Below the pieces are notes generated by a model, which did not search any database, was not told where the DNA came from, and saw nothing but the letters and a program-made list of their open reading frames with translations. Shown here in pieces: positions 7,238 through 40,354 of a stretch of DNA of 40,354 nucleotides. The stretch is from an uncultured bacterium (GTDB lineage Bacteria; UBP7; UBA6624). The position numbers were made by a program, and so were the translations under genes. Location of the stretch: positions 12,161 through 52,514 of the forward strand of contig CAYNKD010000001.1 of assembly GCA_964397735.1 (NCBI GenBank), in the 5' to 3' direction. The stretch's first letter is position 1; every line of letters starts with the position of its first letter.

Positions 7238-8767
7238 GTGTTGTTGGAGAATTGGAATAACCAAAAGAGCTGGGGTGTTGTTTCTGGAGAGACAGAGTGT
7301 TTTTCTGAATCAAAATCTATTTTAGAAATTGGCCCAAAAATGGATTCAAAAAGATATAAATTCTTCCTCAAGTCGTTAAGCTTTTTTATTCCCCCTGGAG
7401 CGTTATTGAGCACTCTTATGCCTTTAAAGGTCCCAGTAGAGCGCTCTGAAGTGCAAAAAGAACCACAAACTTTAAATATTTTTCCAAATTTAAAAACTTT
7501 AGATAGGTTAGGGAAAAAAAAGACATCAAAGTCCAAGAAAAGCATTTTAAACATTGCAAGCGGAAATGATTCAGAGGTTTACGGTCTTGTAGATTCAATA
7601 GGTTTTCCTTTCAATAATCTAAAAAAAATTAACATATTTGAAGAAGGCCATCCTGATTACAGAAGTTTTTATAAAAAAAATCGACATTCTTGGTTTAGAG
7701 ATTCAAAAACATTCTTGAAATCCTGTAAAAATATTTTCAATTGTGAGATTTCTTATATTCAATCAAATTCTTCTCCTTCTGTTGAAAATTATCTAGAGAA
7801 AATAAAAACTAATGATTATCAGAGTTTTTTTAAATCCAATTCTGATTTTATTAGAGAGGGAGATTCTGGCGGAATTAAAGTAGTTAAAAAATGCTTAAAA
7901 GAAAACAAAAGATTAAGTGTCCTCGTTCCCTTTAAGGGAATAGGGCATCTTTTCTGTCAATCTTGTAAAAAATATACAAAATGTCCAATTTGCAAAAAGA
8001 CTTTAACGCTGTATGAACATGAATTGAAGTGTATTGAGTGTAATGATTCTTGGCCAAAAATAAATAGGTGTGACAAGTGCGGAGAGAGGGTTTACAACCT
8101 GAAAAAAGGCCTAGATCATTTTTTCAATTGGTTTTTGATGCAAGGGTTTTCTTCTGAGGACATTGAAGTTATAAGCTCAGAGAAAACACCAAGAGAGATA
8201 AAAAAATCTTTAAAGAATATGAAAGAGGGTCTTTCTAAGGTTTTACTGACCACTAATTTTGAATTTCTAAGAGATGATTATGGGCAAAATATGATTTGGA
8301 TACCTTATTTAAAGTATTTATTTGTAGGCAGTGATTTTAGATCTTACGAGAACGGTTGGTGGAGAATACATGCAATAAATAGTTTTTGTTTAAAAAAAGA
8401 TTTAGATCTATTTTTAGGATCTAAGGGATCTTTTTTCTTTCCGGTAAAATGTTTTGAAAAAGGTGAATTTTCTAAATTTTACAGAGATGAAATCGAAACA
8501 AGAAAGCAATTTGACTATCCTCCTTTTGGAGAGATGTTAATGGTTATTTCAGAAAAAAAAATCAATGGGGTCTCGTACGAAGGGGTTGATTTAGGGGATT
8601 TCGCAAGCGATTTACGTCATTTTAGAGCTTTTAATAGTCGTGGAAGAGAAGAAAATCACACTGCGTATGTTTTTCAATTCAAGGAAATGGAAAAGAATTT
8701 TAAAAAATTCATTAAAAATTTAATTTTAAAAAATGAAAATATTAGAATTTACTACGAAGGAAAATAA
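7238..8767 (+). CDS. priA: Primosomal protein N' (PriA) homolog, shortened, with degenerate helicase motifs.
   Basis: The PriA Cys-rich zinc region is retained (CQSCKKYTKCPICK...CIECN...CDKCG). The C-terminal YPPFG motif and the FFIPPGALLSTLMP winged-helix pattern are present. The gene sits directly upstream of def-fmt. The ORF-track start is GTG 7238; the open frame begins at 7136 with no canonical start before 7238. Confidence 0.7.
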   Translation: MLLENWNNQKSWGVVSGETECFSESKSILEIGPKMDSKRYKFFLKSLSFFIPPGALLSTLMPLKVPVERSEVQKEPQTLNIFPNLKTLDRLGKKKTSKSKKSILNIASGNDSEVYGLVDSIGFPFNNLKKINIFEEGHPDYRSFYKKNRHSWFRDSKTFLKSCKNIFNCEISYIQSNSSPSVENYLEKIKTNDYQSFFKSNSDFIREGDSGGIKVVKKCLKENKRLSVLVPFKGIGHLFCQSCKKYTKCPICKKTLTLYEHELKCIECNDSWPKINRCDKCGERVYNLKKGLDHFFNWFLMQGFSSEDIEVISSEKTPREIKKSLKNMKEGLSKVLLTTNFEFLRDDYGQNMIWIPYLKYLFVGSDFRSYENGWWRIHAINSFCLKKDLDLFLGSKGSFFFPVKCFEKGEFSKFYRDEIETRKQFDYPPFGEMLMVISEKKINGVSYEGVDLGDFASDLRHFRAFNSRGREENHTAYVFQFKEMEKNFKKFIKNLILKNENIRIYYEGK

Positions 8768-17831: not shown

Positions 17832-18812
17832 CTATCCTCCAATCTGAGACAAAGACATCCAGGTCTCTTCCTTGGTCTGTAGAGGATTATATGTTCTTTT
17901 ACTTTTTAAGGTTTCTTTCACTACCTGTCTTAGGTCTTCTATTTGATTTCTTCTTAATTTTTCTTTCAAGTCAACTCCTTCATTCTGATAAAGACAAACG
18001 GACAGTTTTCCATTACATGATATTCTCAATCTTGTACATTTGTGGCATCCAGGATCTGATGCAGCAGCTATTAATCCTATTTTTTGTTTTGAGTTTCTTG
18101 CCTTTCTGTATATTGCAGGACTTAATTTTGATTCAATAAGTTCAGTATTTTTTGGGAATATTCTTTGCAATTCTTTGTTAATTGTTTTTGCAGGGATGTA
18201 TTGATTTTCATGATATTCGGATGTGTTTTGGAATGACATAAGTTCTATGAAACGTAAATCAATTTTTTTATCATTTGAAAAATCAATAAAATTGGGAATT
18301 TCATGAAAATTTTCTCTTGTTATCACTGTATTTATTTTTATATTTTTAAACTCTAGATTTTCCGCTTTTTCCAAAGATTGCAAAACCTTACTCAAATCTC
18401 CATTTCCAGTCATTTTCCTAAATTTCTTTTCATCTAATGAATCTATGCTTATGTTTATATTGTCAATTCCAGACATTATTAAGCCACTTATTTTTTCGTT
18501 CAGATAATGGCCATTTGTCGTCATTGATATTTTTGGCCTTGGCGAAAGTGTTGAAAGCATGGAGATTAGCTTCTCCACACCCTTCCTAAGAAGAGGTTCC
18601 CCTCCGGTTAACCTTATTTTCTTCAAACCAATTAAATCATTAAATATTTTTGATAATCTGTAATGTTCTTCAAGCGTTAAAAAAGTCTCACTTTTAATGG
18701 AGTTGATATTCCCTTCCGGTAGGCAATACTTACATCTGTAATTGCATTTGTCAGTCAAGGAAAGTCTTAAGTATTCTTGCTTAATCAATTCATTCACCTT
18801 TCTCGATATCAA
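17832..18812 (-). CDS. moaA: GTP 3',8-cyclase MoaA (radical SAM).
   Basis: The motif LRLSLTDKCNYRCKYCLPEG (CxxxCxxC) is present, together with the C-terminal cluster CHKCTRLRISCNGKLSVC. Confidence 0.9.
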   Translation of the reverse strand: MISRKVNELIKQEYLRLSLTDKCNYRCKYCLPEGNINSIKSETFLTLEEHYRLSKIFNDLIGLKKIRLTGGEPLLRKGVEKLISMLSTLSPRPKISMTTNGHYLNEKISGLIMSGIDNINISIDSLDEKKFRKMTGNGDLSKVLQSLEKAENLEFKNIKINTVITRENFHEIPNFIDFSNDKKIDLRFIELMSFQNTSEYHENQYIPAKTINKELQRIFPKNTELIESKLSPAIYRKARNSKQKIGLIAAASDPGCHKCTRLRISCNGKLSVCLYQNEGVDLKEKLRRNQIEDLRQVVKETLKSKRTYNPLQTKEETWMSLSQIGG

Positions 18813-19221
18813 TTTTTTTTATTATTTCTTCCAAGGGTTCCGAATAGCTCCAAGGAATAATTTTTATTTTATGCTCAACGGATTTTAGAGCTGCTGCAAT
18901 AAGGATGTCTTCTTTTGGAAAAATGATTACATTTACGTTTTTTTCCGTATTTAGAATTTTATTTATTTCTATTGTTGCTTTTGGCAAAAATGTAAAGAAG
19001 TCAAAGATGTCTTTTTTGTTGGGAATGTATTTGATTGTCAAATGATGATGTCCATCTTTTTCATTCAATATTTTTCTTTCGTCCCATTTTTTTGAAGTTC
19101 CTGCAATCCATAGAACTTCAAATTTCTCTATTTTTGAAAGTTTTTTTGCCAATTCCCAGCAAATAGAAGAAGAGCCTTTCTCGTTTGGGCTTATTGTTCT
19201 TGATACGGAAATTATTTTCAT
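18790..19221 (-). CDS. Hypothetical 143-aa protein resembling only the N-terminal half of a GT-B (GT4-like) glycosyltransferase.
   Basis: The MKIISVS...WELAKKLSKIEKFEVLWIAG pattern resembles the first Rossmann domain of GT4 enzymes. No C-terminal catalytic domain follows. It overlaps moaA by 23 nt and glcD-like by 4 nt. Confidence 0.4.
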   Translation of the reverse strand: MKIISVSRTISPNEKGSSSICWELAKKLSKIEKFEVLWIAGTSKKWDERKILNEKDGHHHLTIKYIPNKKDIFDFFTFLPKATIEINKILNTEKNVNVIIFPKEDILIAAALKSVEHKIKIIPWSYSEPLEEIIKKIDIEKGE

Positions 19222-20558
19222 TTAAATATTTTTCCCGGATTCATGATTCCAAAAGGATCGAATACATTTTTTATTTTTTTCATTTTTTGAATTTTTATCA
19301 AGTCTGTATTTTCATAAAATGATTCTTTTTTAGCTAAGCCTATCCCATGTTCTCCAGTTATTGTTCCATTCATCTTTACGGCTTCATTCAATATTTCAAA
19401 CCTGGCATTTTTCATTTTTTTTGAGTAGTCTAAATTTTTTTCAATAATGAATTGTGGATGCAAGTTCCCATCTCCACCATGCCCCATTGTAAAAATTTCA
19501 ATTTTATATTTTTTTGAAATTAGATCAATTTTTTTTACCATTTTAGACAAAGACCCAACAGGAACGGTTATATCTTCTACATGAACTTTTCCTAATTTTT
19601 TTAGACTTTCTAAAACTCCTCTTCTTGCTATCCAAAGCTTATCTCTTTCTTTTTTTGAAAAAGAGTATCTGAAATCAATTGATTTTTTTTTGATGATTGG
19701 TTTAATTTTTTCAACCTCTTCTTCAACTTTTTTTTTATTTCCAGAACACTCACAAAGTAGTAATGAGCAATCTTTTCCTAAGTTTAGATTGTGATGGTTG
19801 TTAACTGCTCCTAGTGTTTTATTGTCAAGTATCTCCAGTGCTTGAGGCAAAAATCCTTCTTTTCTTATTTCTTCAACTTTTTTTGCAGCTATGTCGAAGT
19901 TTTTATAAGTAGCAATTATTGTCGCATTGGATTTTGGAATTTTACAAATCTTCAAATATGAGTTTGTGATTACTCCCAGCGTTCCTTCACTTCCAATAAA
20001 AAGATTTGTCATATCGTATCCAGAGACATCCTTTATGGCCTTGCTGCCCGTTCTGAAAAAATCCCCATTTCCATCTATAACATCAAGACTTAAAACCCAA
20101 TTGTTTGTTACCCCGTATTTGAGGCATGAAATTCCACCTGCATTAGTTGCGAGATTGCCTCCAATAGTGCATTCTTTCCAGCTCGATGGATCAGGAGGCC
20201 AAAAAAATCCTTCTTTTTCCAACTTTTTTTGAAGATCTGAATTAATTACCCCGGGTTCACATTCAACCATTAAATCATTTTTAGATATTTTTATTTTCTT
20301 CATTTCTTTCAAATCCAAAATTATTCCTTTCCCAACAGCTCCTCCTGCAAGCCCTGTTCCAGAGCCCCTGGGAATAATTCCAATTTTCTCTTTTCTTGCC
20401 CATCTAACTAATTTGACTATTTGGGATTTTCTCCTAGGCGTGACAATTGCAAATGGCTTTATTGAAATCAGGCTTTCGTCTTTTGAATATTTTTTTATTG
20501 CTTCATCAGACAAAAATAAATCATTTTGAAATATTTTTTTTAAAAAAGAAATTCTCAT
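19218..20558 (-). CDS. FAD-linked oxidase, GlcD / D-lactate dehydrogenase family.
   Basis: The FAD-binding PCMH pattern is PRGSGTGLAGGAV. The C-terminal pattern is GTITGEHGIGLAKK...DPFGIMNPGKIF. Confidence 0.8.
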   Translation of the reverse strand: MRISFLKKIFQNDLFLSDEAIKKYSKDESLISIKPFAIVTPRRKSQIVKLVRWARKEKIGIIPRGSGTGLAGGAVGKGIILDLKEMKKIKISKNDLMVECEPGVINSDLQKKLEKEGFFWPPDPSSWKECTIGGNLATNAGGISCLKYGVTNNWVLSLDVIDGNGDFFRTGSKAIKDVSGYDMTNLFIGSEGTLGVITNSYLKICKIPKSNATIIATYKNFDIAAKKVEEIRKEGFLPQALEILDNKTLGAVNNHHNLNLGKDCSLLLCECSGNKKKVEEEVEKIKPIIKKKSIDFRYSFSKKERDKLWIARRGVLESLKKLGKVHVEDITVPVGSLSKMVKKIDLISKKYKIEIFTMGHGGDGNLHPQFIIEKNLDYSKKMKNARFEILNEAVKMNGTITGEHGIGLAKKESFYENTDLIKIQKMKKIKNVFDPFGIMNPGKIFK

Positions 20559-21055
20559 GCTTGGATGTTGTTTTTTAATTTGTATTCATCTATAAATTTG
20601 AGATGACAGTGAAAAATTATCTGCGGAAGGTTGTTTATCTCAAAAAAACCTAATTCCTCAGCATCATCACCTGCTTTTAATTGAGAAAAGTCATTGACTT
20701 TCATTTCAACACCTATTGACAATATGTCTCCAAACATTGTTCCGTAATGAGAGCAAGTTGATAGCATATTGGTGACCCTTCCATTTAAATTAGTTTCTTC
20801 CTTGAGTTCTCGTCGTGCAGCTTCTTCAAGGGTTTCATTCATCTCCATAAAGCCTCCAGGCAAGCCCCATTCTCCTTTTGCTGGTTCAAAAGCTCTTTTT
20901 GCAAGAAGGATTCTTTCCCCTTTCATGCAGATAATAGTTGCTGTTGGTTTTGGGTTTTGATAATGAATAGAAAGGCAGTTTTCGCAATGATACCTATCAT
21001 TGCCATCGATAAAACTAAATGTATTTTTTTTGCCACATTTTGAACAATATTTCAT
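20555..21055 (-). CDS. NUDIX hydrolase with an N-terminal zinc ribbon.
   Basis: The zinc ribbon is CSKCG...CENC. The Nudix box is GLPGGFMEMNETLEEAARRELKEETNL. Confidence 0.85.
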   Translation of the reverse strand: MKYCSKCGKKNTFSFIDGNDRYHCENCLSIHYQNPKPTATIICMKGERILLAKRAFEPAKGEWGLPGGFMEMNETLEEAARRELKEETNLNGRVTNMLSTCSHYGTMFGDILSIGVEMKVNDFSQLKAGDDAEELGFFEINNLPQIIFHCHLKFIDEYKLKNNIQA

Positions 21056-21077: not shown

Positions 21078-22028
21078 TCAACTTGTGGAAAGGCCTAATT
21101 TTTTAAATATGCCCTCATAGTTGATTTTCCTGGAGGAAGAGTTGATTCTGTTTGCACTCATTCCAAGAGATATGTTGATTAAATCAGTTGCATACATTAC
21201 CGGTATGGGTTTCTTGTCAATTCCCAAGGTTTTCATTATTGTTTCTTGGTATGTGTCAATTGCTTCAAGGCCTCTTGGGTCCAAGGTTGCAATAACCTCA
21301 GCATCGCTTTCATGAGCATCTTTAATGACTGGACCAATAATCTTTAGAGCATAATCTTTTGTCAGTTTGTTGAAAGAAGAAGAATTTTCATTCCTTAGTT
21401 GGATTGTTAGGTAGCCACCGAGCCACCTGTTAAAAGAACCCCAGTTAACGCATTTCCCGCCTGTCTTGTGAATTAGAGAGGAAACAATCATTGGATTGTC
21501 TGGATGGTCAGATTTAATTTCCGACATTGGTCGCATAAGTTCAGGGGGTGTGTGTAGGGCTATTCTTAAAGGGTCAAATTCTTCATCTCTATCATTTCCT
21601 AGTTTTCTTATGATAAGTCTGTCAAATTTTTTACCTCCAGTCTGCAGCTTCATAAGGTGGAGAATGTTTACAGCTTTAAATCTTCCAGAATATTCAATTC
21701 CGAGAGATTCAATCATTTTGTCTTTTGCATTTGCATAAGAAGGATCTCGAAGCCTCTTTATAGCTTTTCTATAAACTTGATAAAGCAATGGGTCTGCTAT
21801 AAATAATTTATCATTTCTTGTAGTTTTTTCAGCTATACATAAATTCCTTAAAGTGTACCCAATGAATTTTTTTTCATCTGTGAGATAAGGGCCTTCTTCA
21901 CCTGTATCGCTCCAGTTTTGTATAGTTTCATCATCAATTCCCAATTGCCTCAAACAAACAGACATACTGCTTTCGAAATCTTTGTAAACAGAGGAAAGGA
22001 TTCCTGATTTGATTAATGTAACCTTCAT
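21078..22028 (-). CDS. HdrB/CCG-domain-like protein lacking the CCG-motif cysteines.
   Basis: It is colinear with HdrB as I remember it. LRNLCIAEK matches ARN.xIAE, RIALHTPPELMRP matches VHYGCHFLKP, EVIATLDPRGLEAID matches VNVCPFCHLQFD, and IPVMYATDLINISLGMS matches PVLHL.QLLGLAMG. Only 3 Cys occur in 316 aa. Confidence 0.6.
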   Translation of the reverse strand: MKVTLIKSGILSSVYKDFESSMSVCLRQLGIDDETIQNWSDTGEEGPYLTDEKKFIGYTLRNLCIAEKTTRNDKLFIADPLLYQVYRKAIKRLRDPSYANAKDKMIESLGIEYSGRFKAVNILHLMKLQTGGKKFDRLIIRKLGNDRDEEFDPLRIALHTPPELMRPMSEIKSDHPDNPMIVSSLIHKTGGKCVNWGSFNRWLGGYLTIQLRNENSSSFNKLTKDYALKIIGPVIKDAHESDAEVIATLDPRGLEAIDTYQETIMKTLGIDKKPIPVMYATDLINISLGMSANRINSSSRKINYEGIFKKLGLSTS

Positions 22029-22576
22029 TCTGTTTTTTCCTCAAGTGAATCTTTGAATGTGAAAAATCCTGGAAGATCTTGGATTTCTCTAAGTGGAGTT
22101 CTTTCTTCTTCCTCTTCTTCTTCTCCACGCAATAATTTTTGGAAGAATCCCTTTTTCTTTTCTTCTTTTTGTTTTATTTTTTCCAAACCAACATCAGTTG
22201 GTTGAAGCCTTCCCCAATTGTCTAAGGGAGAAATAAAGGAGTTGTAAAATTGAAAAATTGGGTTGTTTTTTGGAGCCATATTTCTTTTTACAGACTCAAA
22301 TCTTAACCACTCTAAGACCCTTTCAAGATCAATGTCATGTGGAGCAATATCTGTTGCACAAAAAACATCTTGCATTAGCCAAATATCTATTGACGACAAT
22401 ACAGATTCATCATTGTTTATTACACTGTCAATAATTCTCGATAATCCATTTTTACAAATATTTCTGGAAGACATTGACCCATCTCCGGACCACCAATGCC
22501 TTAAAGGAGAAAGGTTTATACCTGTATCTTTTTCTAGTTTTTCATGTAAAGTGGTTTCTTTTGAGTCTTTTTCCAT
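22025..22576 (-). CDS. HdrC-like helical-ferredoxin-fold protein lacking the Fe-S cysteines, with a poly-Glu tract.
   Basis: SIDIWLMQDVFCATDIAPHDIDLERVLEWLRFES matches LW.C..C..C..RCP..V.I.D....LR. LRHWWSGDGSMSSRN lies where C..C..C...CP sits. It overlaps the HdrB-like gene by 4 nt. I chose ATG 22576 over the track's TTG 22603. Confidence 0.55.
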   Translation of the reverse strand: MEKDSKETTLHEKLEKDTGINLSPLRHWWSGDGSMSSRNICKNGLSRIIDSVINNDESVLSSIDIWLMQDVFCATDIAPHDIDLERVLEWLRFESVKRNMAPKNNPIFQFYNSFISPLDNWGRLQPTDVGLEKIKQKEEKKKGFFQKLLRGEEEEEEERTPLREIQDLPGFFTFKDSLEEKTE

Positions 22577-22631
22577 GATTTGAATTCTATTGTTTTTTAA
22601 CAATATTATTGTTTAATTTAGAATATTCCCA

Positions 22632-23798
22632 ATGAGATTTACTCGTGCAATTAAAAGTTTGAAGCCTGAGGGGGCTTTTGTTGTTCTTGCAAAAGCGAAA
22701 GAACTGGAGGCAGAAGGTAAGAAAATAATTCATTTAGATATTGGACAACCTGATTTTCCAACCCCTAAACATATTGTCGAAAGCGCAAAAAAATCCTTAG
22801 ATCAAATTTGGACACATGGATACACTCCATCTTTAGGGGTTATGGATTTGAGGATTGCTATTGCTGAAGATCTTTCTGCAAGGAGGGGTGTTGGTTTTTC
22901 TGCTGATGAAATTATTGTTTGCCCTGGTGCTAAGCCAGCATTGATGGCCACTGTTTTAGCTTTAGTAGAACCTGGAAAAAAGCTCTTGTATCCAGACCCA
23001 GGTTTCCCTTCTTACCACTCTCTTGCGTCTTTCGTGAAGGCTCAAGGTGTAGGAGTCCCTCTTTTAGAAAAGAATGGATTTGCTTTTGATCTGAATTTTT
23101 TAGAAAAAGAAATCAAAGGATCCTCATTGCTCATATTGAATTCTCCAGCAAATCCGACAGGGGGGATATTAAAGAAAGAAGATTTGGAAATCATAGCAAG
23201 TTTATGCATTGAGAATAATGTTACAGTTTTAAGCGATGAGGTGTATTCAAGAATGTGCTATGACGGAGAGCATGTTTCAATTGCAACAATTCCAGGAATG
23301 AAAGAAAGAACTGTTGTGATTGACGGTTTCTCTAAAACCTATGCTATGACCGGATGGAGAGCTGGATATGCTGCAGCTGATAGGAAATTGATTGACAAGT
23401 TGGGATTGTTTATGAACAACAACACATCATGTGTCAATGGAATGACGCAAGCGGCTTGTATTGAAGCAATTAGGGGGAGTCAGGATCCGAGCGAAATGAT
23501 GATTGAAGAATTCAAGAAAAGAAGAACTCTTATAGTTGATGGGCTAAATGATGTCCCTGGTTTTTCTTGCAAGAATCCCGGAGGTGCCTTTTATGCTTTT
23601 CCAAACATCAAAAATACAAACCTAAGTGGAAAGAAAATTAGTGACCATATGCTGGAAAAAGGTGTTGCTCTACTGCCGGGCGAGGATTTTGGGAGACATG
23701 GGGAGGGCTATATACGACTTTCCTATGCTAATTCAAGAGAAAATATACTGCAAGCAATAGATATGCTTATTGAAGAGATTCCAAAAATATCTAGATAA
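22632..23798 (+). CDS. Class I/II pyridoxal-phosphate aminotransferase (aspartate aminotransferase-like).
   Basis: Motifs seen are NSPANPTGG, SDEVYSRM, FSKTYAMTGWRAGY (PLP Lys present) and IRLSYA. Confidence 0.85.
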   Translation: MRFTRAIKSLKPEGAFVVLAKAKELEAEGKKIIHLDIGQPDFPTPKHIVESAKKSLDQIWTHGYTPSLGVMDLRIAIAEDLSARRGVGFSADEIIVCPGAKPALMATVLALVEPGKKLLYPDPGFPSYHSLASFVKAQGVGVPLLEKNGFAFDLNFLEKEIKGSSLLILNSPANPTGGILKKEDLEIIASLCIENNVTVLSDEVYSRMCYDGEHVSIATIPGMKERTVVIDGFSKTYAMTGWRAGYAAADRKLIDKLGLFMNNNTSCVNGMTQAACIEAIRGSQDPSEMMIEEFKKRRTLIVDGLNDVPGFSCKNPGGAFYAFPNIKNTNLSGKKISDHMLEKGVALLPGEDFGRHGEGYIRLSYANSRENILQAIDMLIEEIPKISR

Positions 23799-24708: not shown

Positions 24709-25398
24709 ATGCATTTTTTTATTTTTTTGAATTTTATTTTTTCTCCTTCTATCGAGTTTCGAGGAGAGCCGATGTATTTTTCTCATATTGGAGATAAAAC
24801 TCAAATTGAATTACCACAAGGTGGGGATATCTTTGCTGAGGATTTTTCAATAAAGATTGGTTATTTGTTCAGTGAATATGATTCGAAAGGAGAGGTTTAC
24901 GGAAAGGGGTCTGATGGTGTGTTTTTCTCAAACAGCTCTTCTTCACTATTTGGACAAGATTTGTCTTTTGATAATTACACATTGAGTATATCTGGAGATG
25001 TCAAAGGTTCTTTTGAGAATGTTGTTGAATTTGAGTCTGATTCGGTTTTTTTAGATATTGAAAAAAATAATTTCCTTTTTAAAAAAATAGAAAGAAGCCC
25101 AACTTTCCTCTACAAGGATTTTTTAATGAGGGGAAATTTAATTAACCTTGATTTAACAGCAGGGTCTTTTGAGGGGAAGGAAGATATTTATTTTGAATTT
25201 CATAATCGTTCAAATTCTTTTATTGGAAATGCTGATTCCTTTCATGCAGGGTTAGAAGAAAATTTAGTTTATTTTTCTAATATTTTTTTAAGCAACGGTG
25301 AAGAGTATGATATGAAATCTGAATATATTAAAATCAATATTGAAACTATGCAATTGGAATCTAATGGAAGTTTTGAATTAGTAATTAAAAATGATTAG
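24709..25398 (+). CDS. Hypothetical secreted or envelope protein.
   Basis: The ORF is intact with a hydrophobic N-terminus and a beta-rich, Ser/Phe/Asn-rich composition. It overlaps the next gene by 8 nt. I recognise no motif. Confidence 0.45.
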   Translation: MHFFIFLNFIFSPSIEFRGEPMYFSHIGDKTQIELPQGGDIFAEDFSIKIGYLFSEYDSKGEVYGKGSDGVFFSNSSSSLFGQDLSFDNYTLSISGDVKGSFENVVEFESDSVFLDIEKNNFLFKKIERSPTFLYKDFLMRGNLINLDLTAGSFEGKEDIYFEFHNRSNSFIGNADSFHAGLEENLVYFSNIFLSNGEEYDMKSEYIKINIETMQLESNGSFELVIKND

Positions 25399-32216: not shown

Positions 32217-33365
32217 TTAAACAACAGGAATTGAAAAAGAAGATTCTTTATTCATTTCTGGAAGCGGATATTCAACATTCTCAGAAAATGTTCTTAGTAT
32301 GTCGTAATAAGTGTTTCTTTGAGCTGGAATTCTGCCTAAATCTCTAATCAACCTTACAGCTTCATTTGGGCCAACTTTATGATGAATTCCAGTTGCTGCA
32401 ATGACTTCTTCCCCAATGACAACCCCACCAAAGTCATCAGCACCATAATTCATTGCCATCTGGCATAACTTAGGTCCATCTGTCACCCATCCAGCTTGTA
32501 GATGTGGAATATTGTCAAGCATCAGTCTCCCTAATGCAACATGTCGAAGATATGATTCTCCCCCAGGTGCTTTCAAGTGTGTCAACTCTGTTCCCCCTGG
32601 TTGAAAGCCCCAACATACAAATGCTGTAAAGCCTCCTGTTTCATCCTGTAATTTCCTAAGAACATCAAAATGTTCCATTTTTTCCAGTATTGTTTCTTCA
32701 AATCCATAAGTCATTGTGCAGCTCGATGGAACACCTTCTTCGTGAGCTGACCTATGAATGTCAAGCCATACGTCCCTGCCACTTCTAAGCGGAGATATAT
32801 TTTTTCTTACCCTGTCAACTAAAATTTCTGCCCCTGCTCCTGGAAGTGACATGTATCCAGATTTTTTTAATTCTGAGAAAACATTATTAAATGTCATTTT
32901 TTCTTTTTTTGCAATCCATTCAATTTCAGCTGATGAAAGACTATGTATTTCAACAGTGGGAAATCTTTTTCTTATTTTCTCAAATATGTTTTTAAAATCT
33001 TGAATTCTGTATCTTGGGTTAACTCCGCCCTGCATTAAAACTTGAGTTCCGCCATAATCTACTAACTCCTGAACTCTTTCTAGTATCTGGTCAATTGACA
33101 GATCGTAGCCTTTTTTTGATTTGGGAAGTTCATAAAAAGCGCAAAATTTACAGAGGACATTGCATATATTGGTATAGTTCAAAACAGTATCTACAACAAA
33201 AGTACCAAGATTGCTGGGGTTATGTCTTAATCTTTCTTTGTTTGCAAGGAAACCCAAAAGGTTCAATGGAGCATTTTCAAATAATTCTGCACCATGGCTT
33301 TTTGTTATTCTCTCTTCATTTTCTAAAGTGTCTATGGCTTCCTTGATTAAGGGTGTTATTTTCAT
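32217..33365 (-). CDS. Radical SAM enzyme of the futalosine menaquinone pathway (MqnE/MqnC family). It is adjacent to mqnA, so it is more likely aminofutalosine synthase.
   Basis: Motifs seen are NYTNICNVLCKFCAFY (CxxxCxxC), LRKLQDETGGFTAF, MLDNIPHLQAGW and YGADDFGGV. Confidence 0.7.
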   Translation of the reverse strand: MKITPLIKEAIDTLENEERITKSHGAELFENAPLNLLGFLANKERLRHNPSNLGTFVVDTVLNYTNICNVLCKFCAFYELPKSKKGYDLSIDQILERVQELVDYGGTQVLMQGGVNPRYRIQDFKNIFEKIRKRFPTVEIHSLSSAEIEWIAKKEKMTFNNVFSELKKSGYMSLPGAGAEILVDRVRKNISPLRSGRDVWLDIHRSAHEEGVPSSCTMTYGFEETILEKMEHFDVLRKLQDETGGFTAFVCWGFQPGGTELTHLKAPGGESYLRHVALGRLMLDNIPHLQAGWVTDGPKLCQMAMNYGADDFGGVVIGEEVIAATGIHHKVGPNEAVRLIRDLGRIPAQRNTYYDILRTFSENVEYPLPEMNKESSFSIPVV

Positions 33366-34144
33366 TGCCCTCTATCGTATCTTTCCTTTATGAGGATTGG
33401 CCTTCCCAACTCCCTAAATATCTTCCATCCTTGAAGGATTTTTTTTTCCAGTTTGACATTGTAGCAACTAAGGTATCTCTCGGCTGTCTTTTTGGTTACA
33501 CCTGAAGAAATAATAATTGATTTCTTTACTTCTTCAATATTTTTTTTACCCCAAGAATAAGAAGACATTAGTTTTTTTTCAATTTCATCTTTAGATTTTT
33601 CAGCATTTGAATTTCGTTTTACACACCAAAAAGCATATGGAATAGATGTTCCAGTCATTTCATGCCAGATTAGACCTAGATCTTCGAAAAATGCGTATTT
33701 CCCACTTTCATACCATCTCAAAGCCTTGTCCCCTATACAAAGGACAGCTTCTGAAGGCCTGGGATCTTCAGGATCCAAAATTCTTGGACTTTGACCAAAT
33801 TTTTCTTTCCATATTATTTTTAGAAGAAGAGGGCTTGTGACTCCTCTTGAAAGATTCCTTATGTTGCATTTGGATAATTCATTCCAAGGCCTGTCACTGA
33901 ATATTCCAACACTCATAACCGGTCCGGATGACGATATCCCCCAGTTCCTCAAAGGCAATGCTTCCGGTTTTGAAATTATTGCTCCGGCAGAGAGAAGGCC
34001 AGTTTCAAATTTTTCTTCCCTCCAGTCTCTTTCTATTTCAACAGGTGATTTGATGAAAAATTCAAAATTGTGATTTATTTTATTTCTTTCTAAAGCAAGG
34101 GTCAATGGATACCTATTTCCAAAACCAATAAGACTTGTTTTCAT
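33362..34144 (-). CDS. mqnA: Chorismate dehydratase MqnA (futalosine pathway).
   Basis: The pattern is FETGLLSAGAI...GPVMSVGIFS...SRGVTSPLLLKIIW...AVLCIGDKAL...EDLGLIWHEMTGTSIPYAFWCVKR. It overlaps the downstream radical-SAM gene by 4 nt. Confidence 0.7.
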   Translation of the reverse strand: MKTSLIGFGNRYPLTLALERNKINHNFEFFIKSPVEIERDWREEKFETGLLSAGAIISKPEALPLRNWGISSSGPVMSVGIFSDRPWNELSKCNIRNLSRGVTSPLLLKIIWKEKFGQSPRILDPEDPRPSEAVLCIGDKALRWYESGKYAFFEDLGLIWHEMTGTSIPYAFWCVKRNSNAEKSKDEIEKKLMSSYSWGKKNIEEVKKSIIISSGVTKKTAERYLSCYNVKLEKKILQGWKIFRELGRPILIKERYDRGQ

Positions 34145-39844: not shown

Positions 39845-40354
39845 TTATTCAGAGCTTTTTGCTAGCTCCATTAATTTCTCTTTACTTGGAGCATTTCCGT
39901 AAATTGAATTCACAGGAATTGGTTCCCTTCCACTTTCTTTAAGTATTCTCATTAGATTTGCTTGGGTAAACTCGTTAGAAGAAAACCCTCCAGCCTCTTT
40001 TGCTATCTCTTCATCAAGACTCGTCCCTCCAACATCATCAATGCCATAATGAAGAAGCACTTGTGTCATTTTTGGTCCTTGGTACGTCCAGAGTATTCTT
40101 ATGTGTGGAAAATTATCTAAATATATCCTGCTAATTGCACAGACCCTTGCGTCATAATGCCCAGTTGTTGGGCCAACCTCATCTTGAAATTCTGTATTTT
40201 CCGGAAGGAACGCTAAAGGTATTAGCGCTAAGAATCCATTCGTTTTATCTTGTGTTTTTCTTAGCATGTCAAGATGGTGAATGATTTCTTCTTTTGTCTC
40301 TACGTGTCCATAGAGCATTGTTGCATTGCTGTTCATTCCAACCTTGTGCGTAAT
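39845..40354 (-). CDS. Radical SAM futalosine-pathway enzyme (MqnC/MqnE family), C-terminal part only. The 5' end lies beyond the right edge.
   Basis: Motifs seen are NATMLYGHVETKEEIIHHLDMLRKTQDKTNGFLALIPLAF.PENT, YLDNFPHIRILW and YGIDDVGGTS. The frame is open to position 40354. Confidence 0.7.
   Translation of the reverse strand: MTHKVGMNSNATMLYGHVETKEEIIHHLDMLRKTQDKTNGFLALIPLAFLPENTEFQDEVGPTTGHYDARVCAISRIYLDNFPHIRILWTYQGPKMTQVLLHYGIDDVGGTSLDEEIAKEAGGFSSNEFTQANLMRILKESGREPIPVNSIYGNAPSKEKLMELAKSSE

Follow-up and report, generated by a model that had tools for sequence, protein, structure and literature searches.

Does an HdrC-HdrB pair persist under selection once the cysteines that hold its iron-sulfur (Fe-S) clusters are gone, and what could such a pair still do? 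The question is raised by two adjacent genes on the minus strand of a 40,354-nucleotide (nt) stretch of contig CAYNKD010000001.1 from an uncultured bacterium (the window; all positions are in the numbering of this whole stretch), which an initial annotation had described as intact, overlapping relatives of the heterodisulfide reductase (Hdr) subunits C and B with essentially all ligand cysteines replaced. We refer to the HdrC-like product as C' and to the HdrB-like product as B'; residue numbers follow the 183-amino acid (aa) C' and the 316-aa B'. In our assessment the two proteins quite probably derive from a bacterial stand-alone HdrC-HdrB pair and are still functional, but have ceased to bind Fe-S clusters. 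The features of the pair are as follows, with the sources of each assignment in brackets.

22025..22576, minus strand: C' gene, HdrC-like, 183 aa from ATG 22576 (open reading frame list, database starts, TIGR03290, PDB HdrC, hhalign)
22469..22504, minus strand: remnant of the first CxxCxxCxxxCP motif in C', LRHWWSGDGSMS, with L25, W28, G31 and M35 (against CTDCGICSAVCP in the HdrC of the sister locus L011)
22340..22387, minus strand: remnant of the second ferredoxin motif in C', DIWLMQDVFCATDIAP, with M68, V71, A74 and A78 (HMMER to 7bkb_C and 5odc_C; MAFFT to L011)
22055..22225, minus strand: C-terminal arm of C', residues 118-174, L..WGRL...D.G...G...R.PL..I.D.P..F.F (common to the canonical sister HdrC)
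22025..22028, minus strand: ATGA overlap of the C' stop codon and the B' start codon (coordinates checked)
21078..22028, minus strand: B' gene, HdrB-like, 316 aa, two CCG-type domains, no ligand cysteines (TIGR03288, PDB profile, AlphaFold2, Foldseek)
21783..22004, minus strand: first CCG positions of B', with G9 (22002-22004), D41-T42 (21903-21908) and D79-P-L-L82 (21783-21794) replacing C...CC...CxxC (alignments)
21270..21554, minus strand: second CCG positions of B', with HTPPE/P162 (21540-21554), RWLGG/W202-L203 (21414-21428) and DPRG/D250, G253 (21270-21281) (alignments)

Homology of the pair and fate of the cluster ligands

Both open reading frames (ORFs) are uninterrupted on the minus strand, as originally described. 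The C' ORF had been drawn from a TTG codon (22025-22603, 192 aa), whereas the start at ATG 22576 (MEKDSK..., 183 aa) matches database gene calls and the orthologues; the TTG at 22603 probably lies 27 nt too far upstream. The 4-nt overlap between the two genes was found where it had been placed, and an ATGA or GTGA overlap is kept in L001, L012, L016, L002 and L009. It had been brought forward as an argument against simple pseudogenes, for which it is weak evidence on its own, because 4-nt overlaps are common between unrelated neighbours in this lineage.

The likeness of B' to HdrB was borne out by several independent comparisons. The NCBIfam HdrB model TIGR03288 aligns residues 9-311 of B' with an expectation value (E) of 6e-16, at a score of 58.5 bits that lies far below the curated family cut-off of 345. 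A profile built from six members of the B' family matched PDB HdrB chains over their entire length, with E 1.3e-16 to 1.5e-15 (8rvu_b, 1.3e-16; 5odc_B, 4.5e-16; 9sfi_C), and when 1.84 billion representatives were searched exhaustively with the B' profile in HMMER, 486 matches had E <= 1e-3, 99 of them E <= 1e-10. Comparison by hhalign gave E 1.9e-32 against the sister protein P0060 and 1.1e-27 against a Desulfitobacterium HdrB-family protein. An AlphaFold2 model of B' computed from a 63-sequence alignment reached a predicted local distance difference test score (pLDDT) of 91.4 and a predicted template modelling score (pTM) of 0.90, and its top six PDB matches in Foldseek were all HdrB chains (E 7e-18 to 4e-16, template modelling (TM) score 0.77-0.87). 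The best match outside Hdr was 3kwl, the solved structure of a 498-aa hypothetical protein of Helicobacter pylori (E 9e-9, TMq 0.62); a LutA model (E 6e-8, TM 0.50) and EtfD came next, with Asp/Glu racemases at E ~1e-3. By these alignments B' is a full-length HdrB homologue, and its predicted structure retains both domains of the HdrB fold.

Direct matches of C' are marginal. TIGR03290 (HdrC) aligned residues 43-147 with E 1.6e-3 and 18.4 bits, the cut-off being 160, and a profile of the C' family found five matches in the PDB, every one an HdrC, at E 1.2e-3 to 0.14. Aligned by hhalign with the canonical HdrC encoded at the sister locus L011, the C' family reached a probability of 97.4% and an E of 1.2e-11 across 139 columns. 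The family and this HdrC have 25 invariant columns in common, and 12 of them fall in the C-terminal arm. The gene order of the pair, C' then B', is that of hdrC and hdrB. The HdrC likeness initially proposed for C' is therefore weak when judged directly, but the match with the sister's canonical HdrC makes this homology, as far as sequence goes, a solid one. Neither protein matches any Pfam model at E <= 1. Because the CCG and Fer4 models depend on cysteines, this blank result is uninformative rather than negative.

The ligand columns of B' were defined as the ten columns that are 100% cysteine in a MAFFT alignment of 57 canonical HdrB sequences. B' carries G9, D41, T42, D79, L82, P162, W202, L203, D250 and G253 at these columns, a mapping that hmmalign and hhalign reproduced, and C' carries L25, W28, G31, M35, M68, V71, A74 and A78 at the eight ferredoxin cysteine positions, with the proline of the second motif as the sole remaining motif residue. 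Ligands are thus retained at 0 of 10 CCG positions and 0 of 8 ferredoxin positions, in agreement with the near-total replacement first reported; the 18 positions are mostly occupied by residues incapable of ligating iron (G, L, W, P, M, V, A and T), along with three acidic residues. Some details of the earlier mapping had to be revised: the second CC corresponds to W202-L203 in RWLGG and not to K192-C193, the first CxxC reads DPLL and not ADPL, and the first ferredoxin motif had been placed three residues off, which leaves the conclusion unchanged. Recounting gave the same cysteine totals as before, two in C' and three in B' (C25, C64 and C193), so that no alignment could supply 18 ligands.

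This loss stands out against the rest of the alignment. None of the ten cysteine columns is kept in B', compared with 34 of 81 conserved non-cysteine columns (Fisher p = 0.012); the ligand loss is specific and not a by-product of divergence. Among the nearest 265 HdrB relatives, all ten cysteines are present in 247, nine in eight (including P0060) and eight in two, P0060 being the only one inspected among those with eight or nine. Relatives with two to seven ligand cysteines are all N-terminally truncated fragments, and zero ligand cysteines occur in the B' family only.

Conservation, selection and extent of the family

Ratios of non-synonymous to synonymous substitution rates (dN/dS) were determined against the orthologues in L006-L010, which are 79-91% identical at a dS of 0.7-1.6. 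They amounted to 0.04-0.09 for B' and 0.07-0.08 for C'. The neighbouring aminotransferase (0.04-0.07) and Nfo genes are at the pair's level, and MiaA (0.10-0.29), a BamB-like protein and the product of the downstream orf143 (~0.2) gave higher values. Both genes are strongly constrained, to the same degree as neighbouring housekeeping genes. Concordantly, the same replacement residues are carried by 17 of 17 natural variants of B' and 18 of 18 of C', and both proteins are full length in every contig that is long enough.

Deep orthologues, 47-50% identical, are encoded in genomes of 53% GC (L012-L015, GCA_014384545.1) and 73% GC (L001), against 33% in the clade of the window. They are likewise cysteine-free at the ligand positions, save Cys250 in P0004; position 250 of B' varies between D, E and C across the family. 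Throughout the family 100 positions of B' are invariant, C25 and C193 among them, whereas the second conserved cysteine of C' is Ser or Ala in deep lineages. Purifying selection and intact orthologues that share the cysteine loss uphold the earlier view that these are not simple pseudogenes.

The family is small. It comprises five clusters at 90% identity among 5.8 billion proteins, and among the 1.84 billion representatives it is represented by one 50%-identity representative (P0059), next to the lone cysteine-bearing sister P0060. At NCBI the proteins are named 'hypothetical protein' (MBC8515070.1, MBC8515071.1, of the 53% GC orthologue). Two entries deviate: the C' entry P0009, on a 648-bp contig, has an aberrant cysteine-rich C-terminus, and the GlcD gene at L014:11685-13024 (GCA_014384545.1) was called as two ORFs of 135 and 327 aa. 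Both look like assembly or frameshift errors and not like decay, since sister assemblies are intact.

The CCG motif is regarded as the defining hallmark of the superfamily of HdrB, GlcF, LutA, SdhE, DsrK and EtfD (PMC13261682, PMC13083937). Its five cysteines have been called 'perfectly conserved' and a family hallmark (PMC13261682), and the variation described concerns a single ligand at most, for example Thr or His in EtfD (PMC13083937). In line with the initial annotation, whose author was aware of no cluster-free variant, our full-text literature search turned up no account of an HdrB or HdrC devoid of cysteines, and a cofactor-less HdrBC or CCG module is not reported in the literature searched.

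Gene neighbourhood, proposed function and alternatives

Three features adjoin the pair downstream.

20555-21055, minus strand: Zn-ribbon Nudix hydrolase, NudC-like (NF001299, E 3e-12), directly after B'
19218-20558, minus strand: GlcD-type flavin adenine dinucleotide (FAD) oxidase, two genes downstream of B'
18790-19221, minus strand: orf143, 141-144 aa across clades, no family match, directly upstream of moaA (also L012:14040-14465 and L002:10069-10503)

On the same strand orf143 is followed by moaA-D-E-C and then by genes for an S-adenosylmethionine (SAM) methyltransferase and a membrane protein resembling lysylphosphatidylglycerol (LPG) synthase; on the other side a class I/II aminotransferase gene, starting at 22632, diverges from the pair. 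The remaining genes of the window, which has a GC content of 34.7%, are housekeeping genes (dnaK, grpE, gmk, coaBC, def, fmt, rpe, metK, miaA, nfo, pabB-like and futalosine-pathway genes). An HdrA gene is absent from the neighbourhood of the pair, no tRNA genes are present in the window, and a promoter and terminator scan of its AT-rich DNA gave no excess over shuffled expectation. The futalosine menaquinone genes, a VitK2_biosynth (MqnA-like) gene and radical-SAM MqnC/CofH-like genes, lie at 32217-34144 and 39845-40336 on the minus strand, one of them near the window end. At E <= 1e-4 no Pfam model matches the 509-aa ORF at 7238-8767 on the plus strand, which has a PpiC-type rotamase gene on one side and def on the other.

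The order nfo, miaA, BamB-like, unknown, xerC-like, aminotransferase, divergent C', B' and hydrolase up to moa recurs at 33%, 53% and 73% GC; the lineage has a very wide GC range. A 229-aa ORF upstream of the BamB-like beta-propeller gene (24709-25398, plus strand, no Pfam match) is the fastest-evolving gene of the block (dN/dS 0.27-0.46, 36-62% identity); orf143 evolves fast as well, at 47-72% identity where its neighbours show 80-90%. In the lineages of 53% and 73% GC the order is C', B', metallo-beta-lactamase (MBL) hydrolase, GlcD, GlcF, orf141 and moaA, with C' to GlcF overlapping serially on one strand (GlcD/GlcF at L001:9676-12026 and L012:11685-14052; GlcF at L014:13026-14051). GlcF is canonical there, having two ferredoxin motifs and CCG motifs (L001, L012-L015). 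In the clade of the window Nudix occupies the MBL slot and GlcF is lost, so that no gene for an Fe-S subunit adjoins GlcD, and GlcD itself is missing beside the pair in L002, L003, L004, L009 and L010. The operon has eroded stepwise in the low-GC marine clade, GlcF first and GlcD later.

The slot after B' holds two unrelated phosphoester hydrolases, Nudix at 33% GC and the MBL-fold protein at 53% and 73% GC (L001:8912-9679, L012:10975-11688). The latter was considered as a glyoxalase II that would lead from methylglyoxal to D-lactate together with GlcDF, and this was rejected: it resembles RNase Z, PhnP and cyclic-nucleotide phosphodiesterase most, and GloB only marginally. Likewise, orf143 was considered as a remnant of GlcF, to which it shows no similarity.

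We infer the absence of clusters in C'B' from the sequence. At the four lost cluster sites, bulky hydrophobic residues would fill the space: W28, W29, M35, W66, M68 and F72 in C', and W202, L203, L82 and P162 in B'. The replacements are indeed rich in such residues, as in HWW..G..M and W.MQD.F of C', which is the expectation if side chains fill the cavities that clusters leave behind. The HdrC C-terminus packs on HdrB in the HdrABC structure. HdrB and HdrC jointly form the substrate crevice (PMC13261682). C' and B' would still pair as a heterodimer, because no other part of C' resembles the cysteine-bearing sister as closely as the C-terminal arm does. Having no cluster ligands, the complex would neither transfer electrons nor reduce disulfides, and it would now serve in a non-redox role independent of GlcD. 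The former heterodisulfide cleft between the two domains of B' might then bind or convert a small polar or anionic ligand by other than redox chemistry; this role is a guess. B' has family-invariant residues that are new relative to HdrB, namely D79, H159, E163, R201, D237, H239, R252, the linker GKKFDRL..R and EK.TRND, and the polar ones among them would line the inter-domain cleft. Tentatively, and with less confidence than the loss of the clusters itself, we picture HdrBC, in one bacterial lineage, as remodelled into a heterodimer that has no clusters and a new activity outside redox chemistry, an enzyme or a binder of a ligand or metal that uses the cleft of the former noncubane cluster, with D79, H159, E163, R201, D237, H239, D/E250 and R252 as candidate residues.

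Several observations weigh against this picture. The invariant residues of B' are not significantly concentrated within +-3 positions of the former ligand columns (42% versus 30%, p = 0.098), for which reason a new pocket in the old active site is only a guess. The B' model matches HdrB, but the alignment behind it consists mostly of canonical HdrB, which biases the model toward that fold; the corresponding model of C', from four close sequences, had a pLDDT of 38.3 and was unusable. One of the replacement residues, D41, is G in one lineage (P0059). Furthermore, all relatives share the synteny of the entire block, and the gene context is therefore no guide to a specific function.

The proximity of GlcD, which the initial annotation took for the usual partner of such a subunit, suggests that C'B' could be a structural or docking accessory of GlcD and a cluster-free stand-in for GlcF. 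GlcD does lie two genes downstream in a lineage that has lost GlcF, and in the 53% and 73% GC relatives the genes from C' to GlcF overlap serially on one strand. The position was confirmed, but the partnership was not: deep relatives encode a canonical GlcF apart from the pair, GlcD is gone from the L002/L009/L010 clade although C'B' is retained there at dN/dS 0.04-0.09, and 4-nt overlaps join unrelated genes throughout the lineage. GlcD thus has or had an Fe-S subunit of its own, and the pair can be retained without GlcD, since relatives carry GlcF or lack GlcD. In addition, hhalign of B' against the GlcF of L014 gave E 0.27 and a probability of 0.2%, compared with E 1e-27 to 1e-32 for HdrB proteins. 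An accessory of GlcD is therefore improbable, and the idea that the pair is a duplicated and split GlcF is excluded by this lack of profile similarity to the neighbouring GlcF. We regard it as unlikely, though less so than a tie to GlcD, that C'B' still binds a metal through non-cysteine ligands, possibly in a mononuclear or binuclear site formed by D79, D/E250, H159, H239 and E163, or an atypical cluster through C25, C193 and the conserved cysteine of C', and is possibly redox-active. An acidic residue takes the place of the first cysteine in both CxxC motifs, in a pseudo-symmetric manner (D79, and D, E or C at 250), the invariant H159 and H239 stand beside former ligand positions and are specific to the family, and C25 and C193 are invariant. 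Against such a site, residues incapable of metal ligation occupy 15 of the 18 ligand positions, D41 is not invariant, and the second conserved cysteine of C' gives way to Ser or Ala in deep lineages.

That C' and B' are decaying hdrCB relics, still open by chance, would agree with the disappearance of all cofactor ligands, with the silence of Pfam on both proteins and with the loss of GlcF and then GlcD from the surrounding operon in a streamlined clade. The selection analysis already refutes it, with dN/dS of 0.04-0.09 at dS 0.7-1.6, and so do full-length ORFs wherever contigs are long enough, 47-50% identity despite a 40-point shift in GC and the 100 invariant residues of B'; independent NCBI, ENA, JGI, Logan and Tara assemblies speak against misassembly or contamination. 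We leave this explanation practically no weight. The same negligible chance is given to a spurious resemblance to HdrB and HdrC that hides a true alignment with ligand cysteines, to which the silent Pfam CCG and Fer4 models and the marginal C' matches might point. HMMER, MAFFT, hhalign and Foldseek agree on colinearity, and three cysteines in B' and two in C' refute this by number alone; chance resemblance or misalignment is ruled out by this agreement of methods together with the counts.

Descent from a stand-alone HdrC-HdrB pair with loss of its clusters would make C'B' a complete pair that, devoid of any ligand of four clusters, is still constrained like housekeeping genes across 33% to 73% GC. 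On the alignments, the proteins clearly descend from HdrB and HdrC and yet lack the cysteine motifs by which membership is defined. This implies that the HdrBC scaffold can stay stable and useful in the absence of clusters and hints at an unrecognised function for the fold. If the tentative new activity were true, B' would be the first protein of the CCG fold to function in the absence of Fe-S clusters, and a core gene even in streamlined marine genomes of 33% GC. Automated annotation overlooks C'B' as 'hypothetical protein' with no Pfam match; conversely, ligand columns need to be checked in 'Hdr-like' matches from marine metagenomes before metabolism is deduced from them. Members of the lineage occur widely in ocean assemblies from Tara, JGI and ENA, and C'B' is therefore available for expression from synthetic genes.

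Comparison with known systems

Methanogen HdrABC (5ODC, 8RVU, 7BKB) shares with the pair the order hdrC-hdrB, colinearity over the full length and, by prediction, the fold of B'. Non-cysteine signature residues of HdrB kept in B' include R61, N62, G43, G46, P167, P179, G204, A238, A243, D258, Q261, P276, Y279 and T281. In contrast to HdrABC, C'B' lacks the ten CCG cysteines and the eight ferredoxin cysteines and has no HdrA nearby. Residues of HdrB that bind the coenzyme M (CoM) and coenzyme B (CoB) substrates have been assigned, including the CoB-binding R14, R201 and R240 in the numbering of that paper (PMC13261682). Mapped on B', G46 alone of the substrate-binding residues is kept; the CoB-binding arginines are not conserved, which fits a different ligand or none.

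By every measure applied, the nearest relative found is a stand-alone bacterial HdrC-HdrB pair (P0060; L011:4613-5182); in the exhaustive search P0060 had a score of 140 bits and an E of 4e-36. This sister pair shares the EKxTRN motif with B' and the arm WGRL..D.G...R.PL..I.D.P..F.F with C'. Unlike C'B', it has nine of the ten CCG cysteines (TCNGG) and both complete CxxCxxCxxxCP motifs; its host is only distantly related (DnaK 47% identical), and the gene context differs. There, L011:4446-6731 comprises a 56-aa ORF, hdrC-hdrB and a Prok-JAB peptidase gene and adjoins a dnaK-grpE-dnaJ-merR operon.

GlcF, GlpC, LutA and SdhE belong to the same domain superfamily of helical ferredoxin and CCG domains, which are fused in these proteins and split between C' and B'; the LutA model was far behind HdrB in the Foldseek search with B'. 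A further parallel is offered by cofactor-less descendants of redox proteins. NuoD of complex I derives from the large subunit of [NiFe]-hydrogenase, which lost its metal site. As in descendants of this type, the redox site of C'B' appears to be lost while the fold and the subunit contacts would be kept and selection continues.

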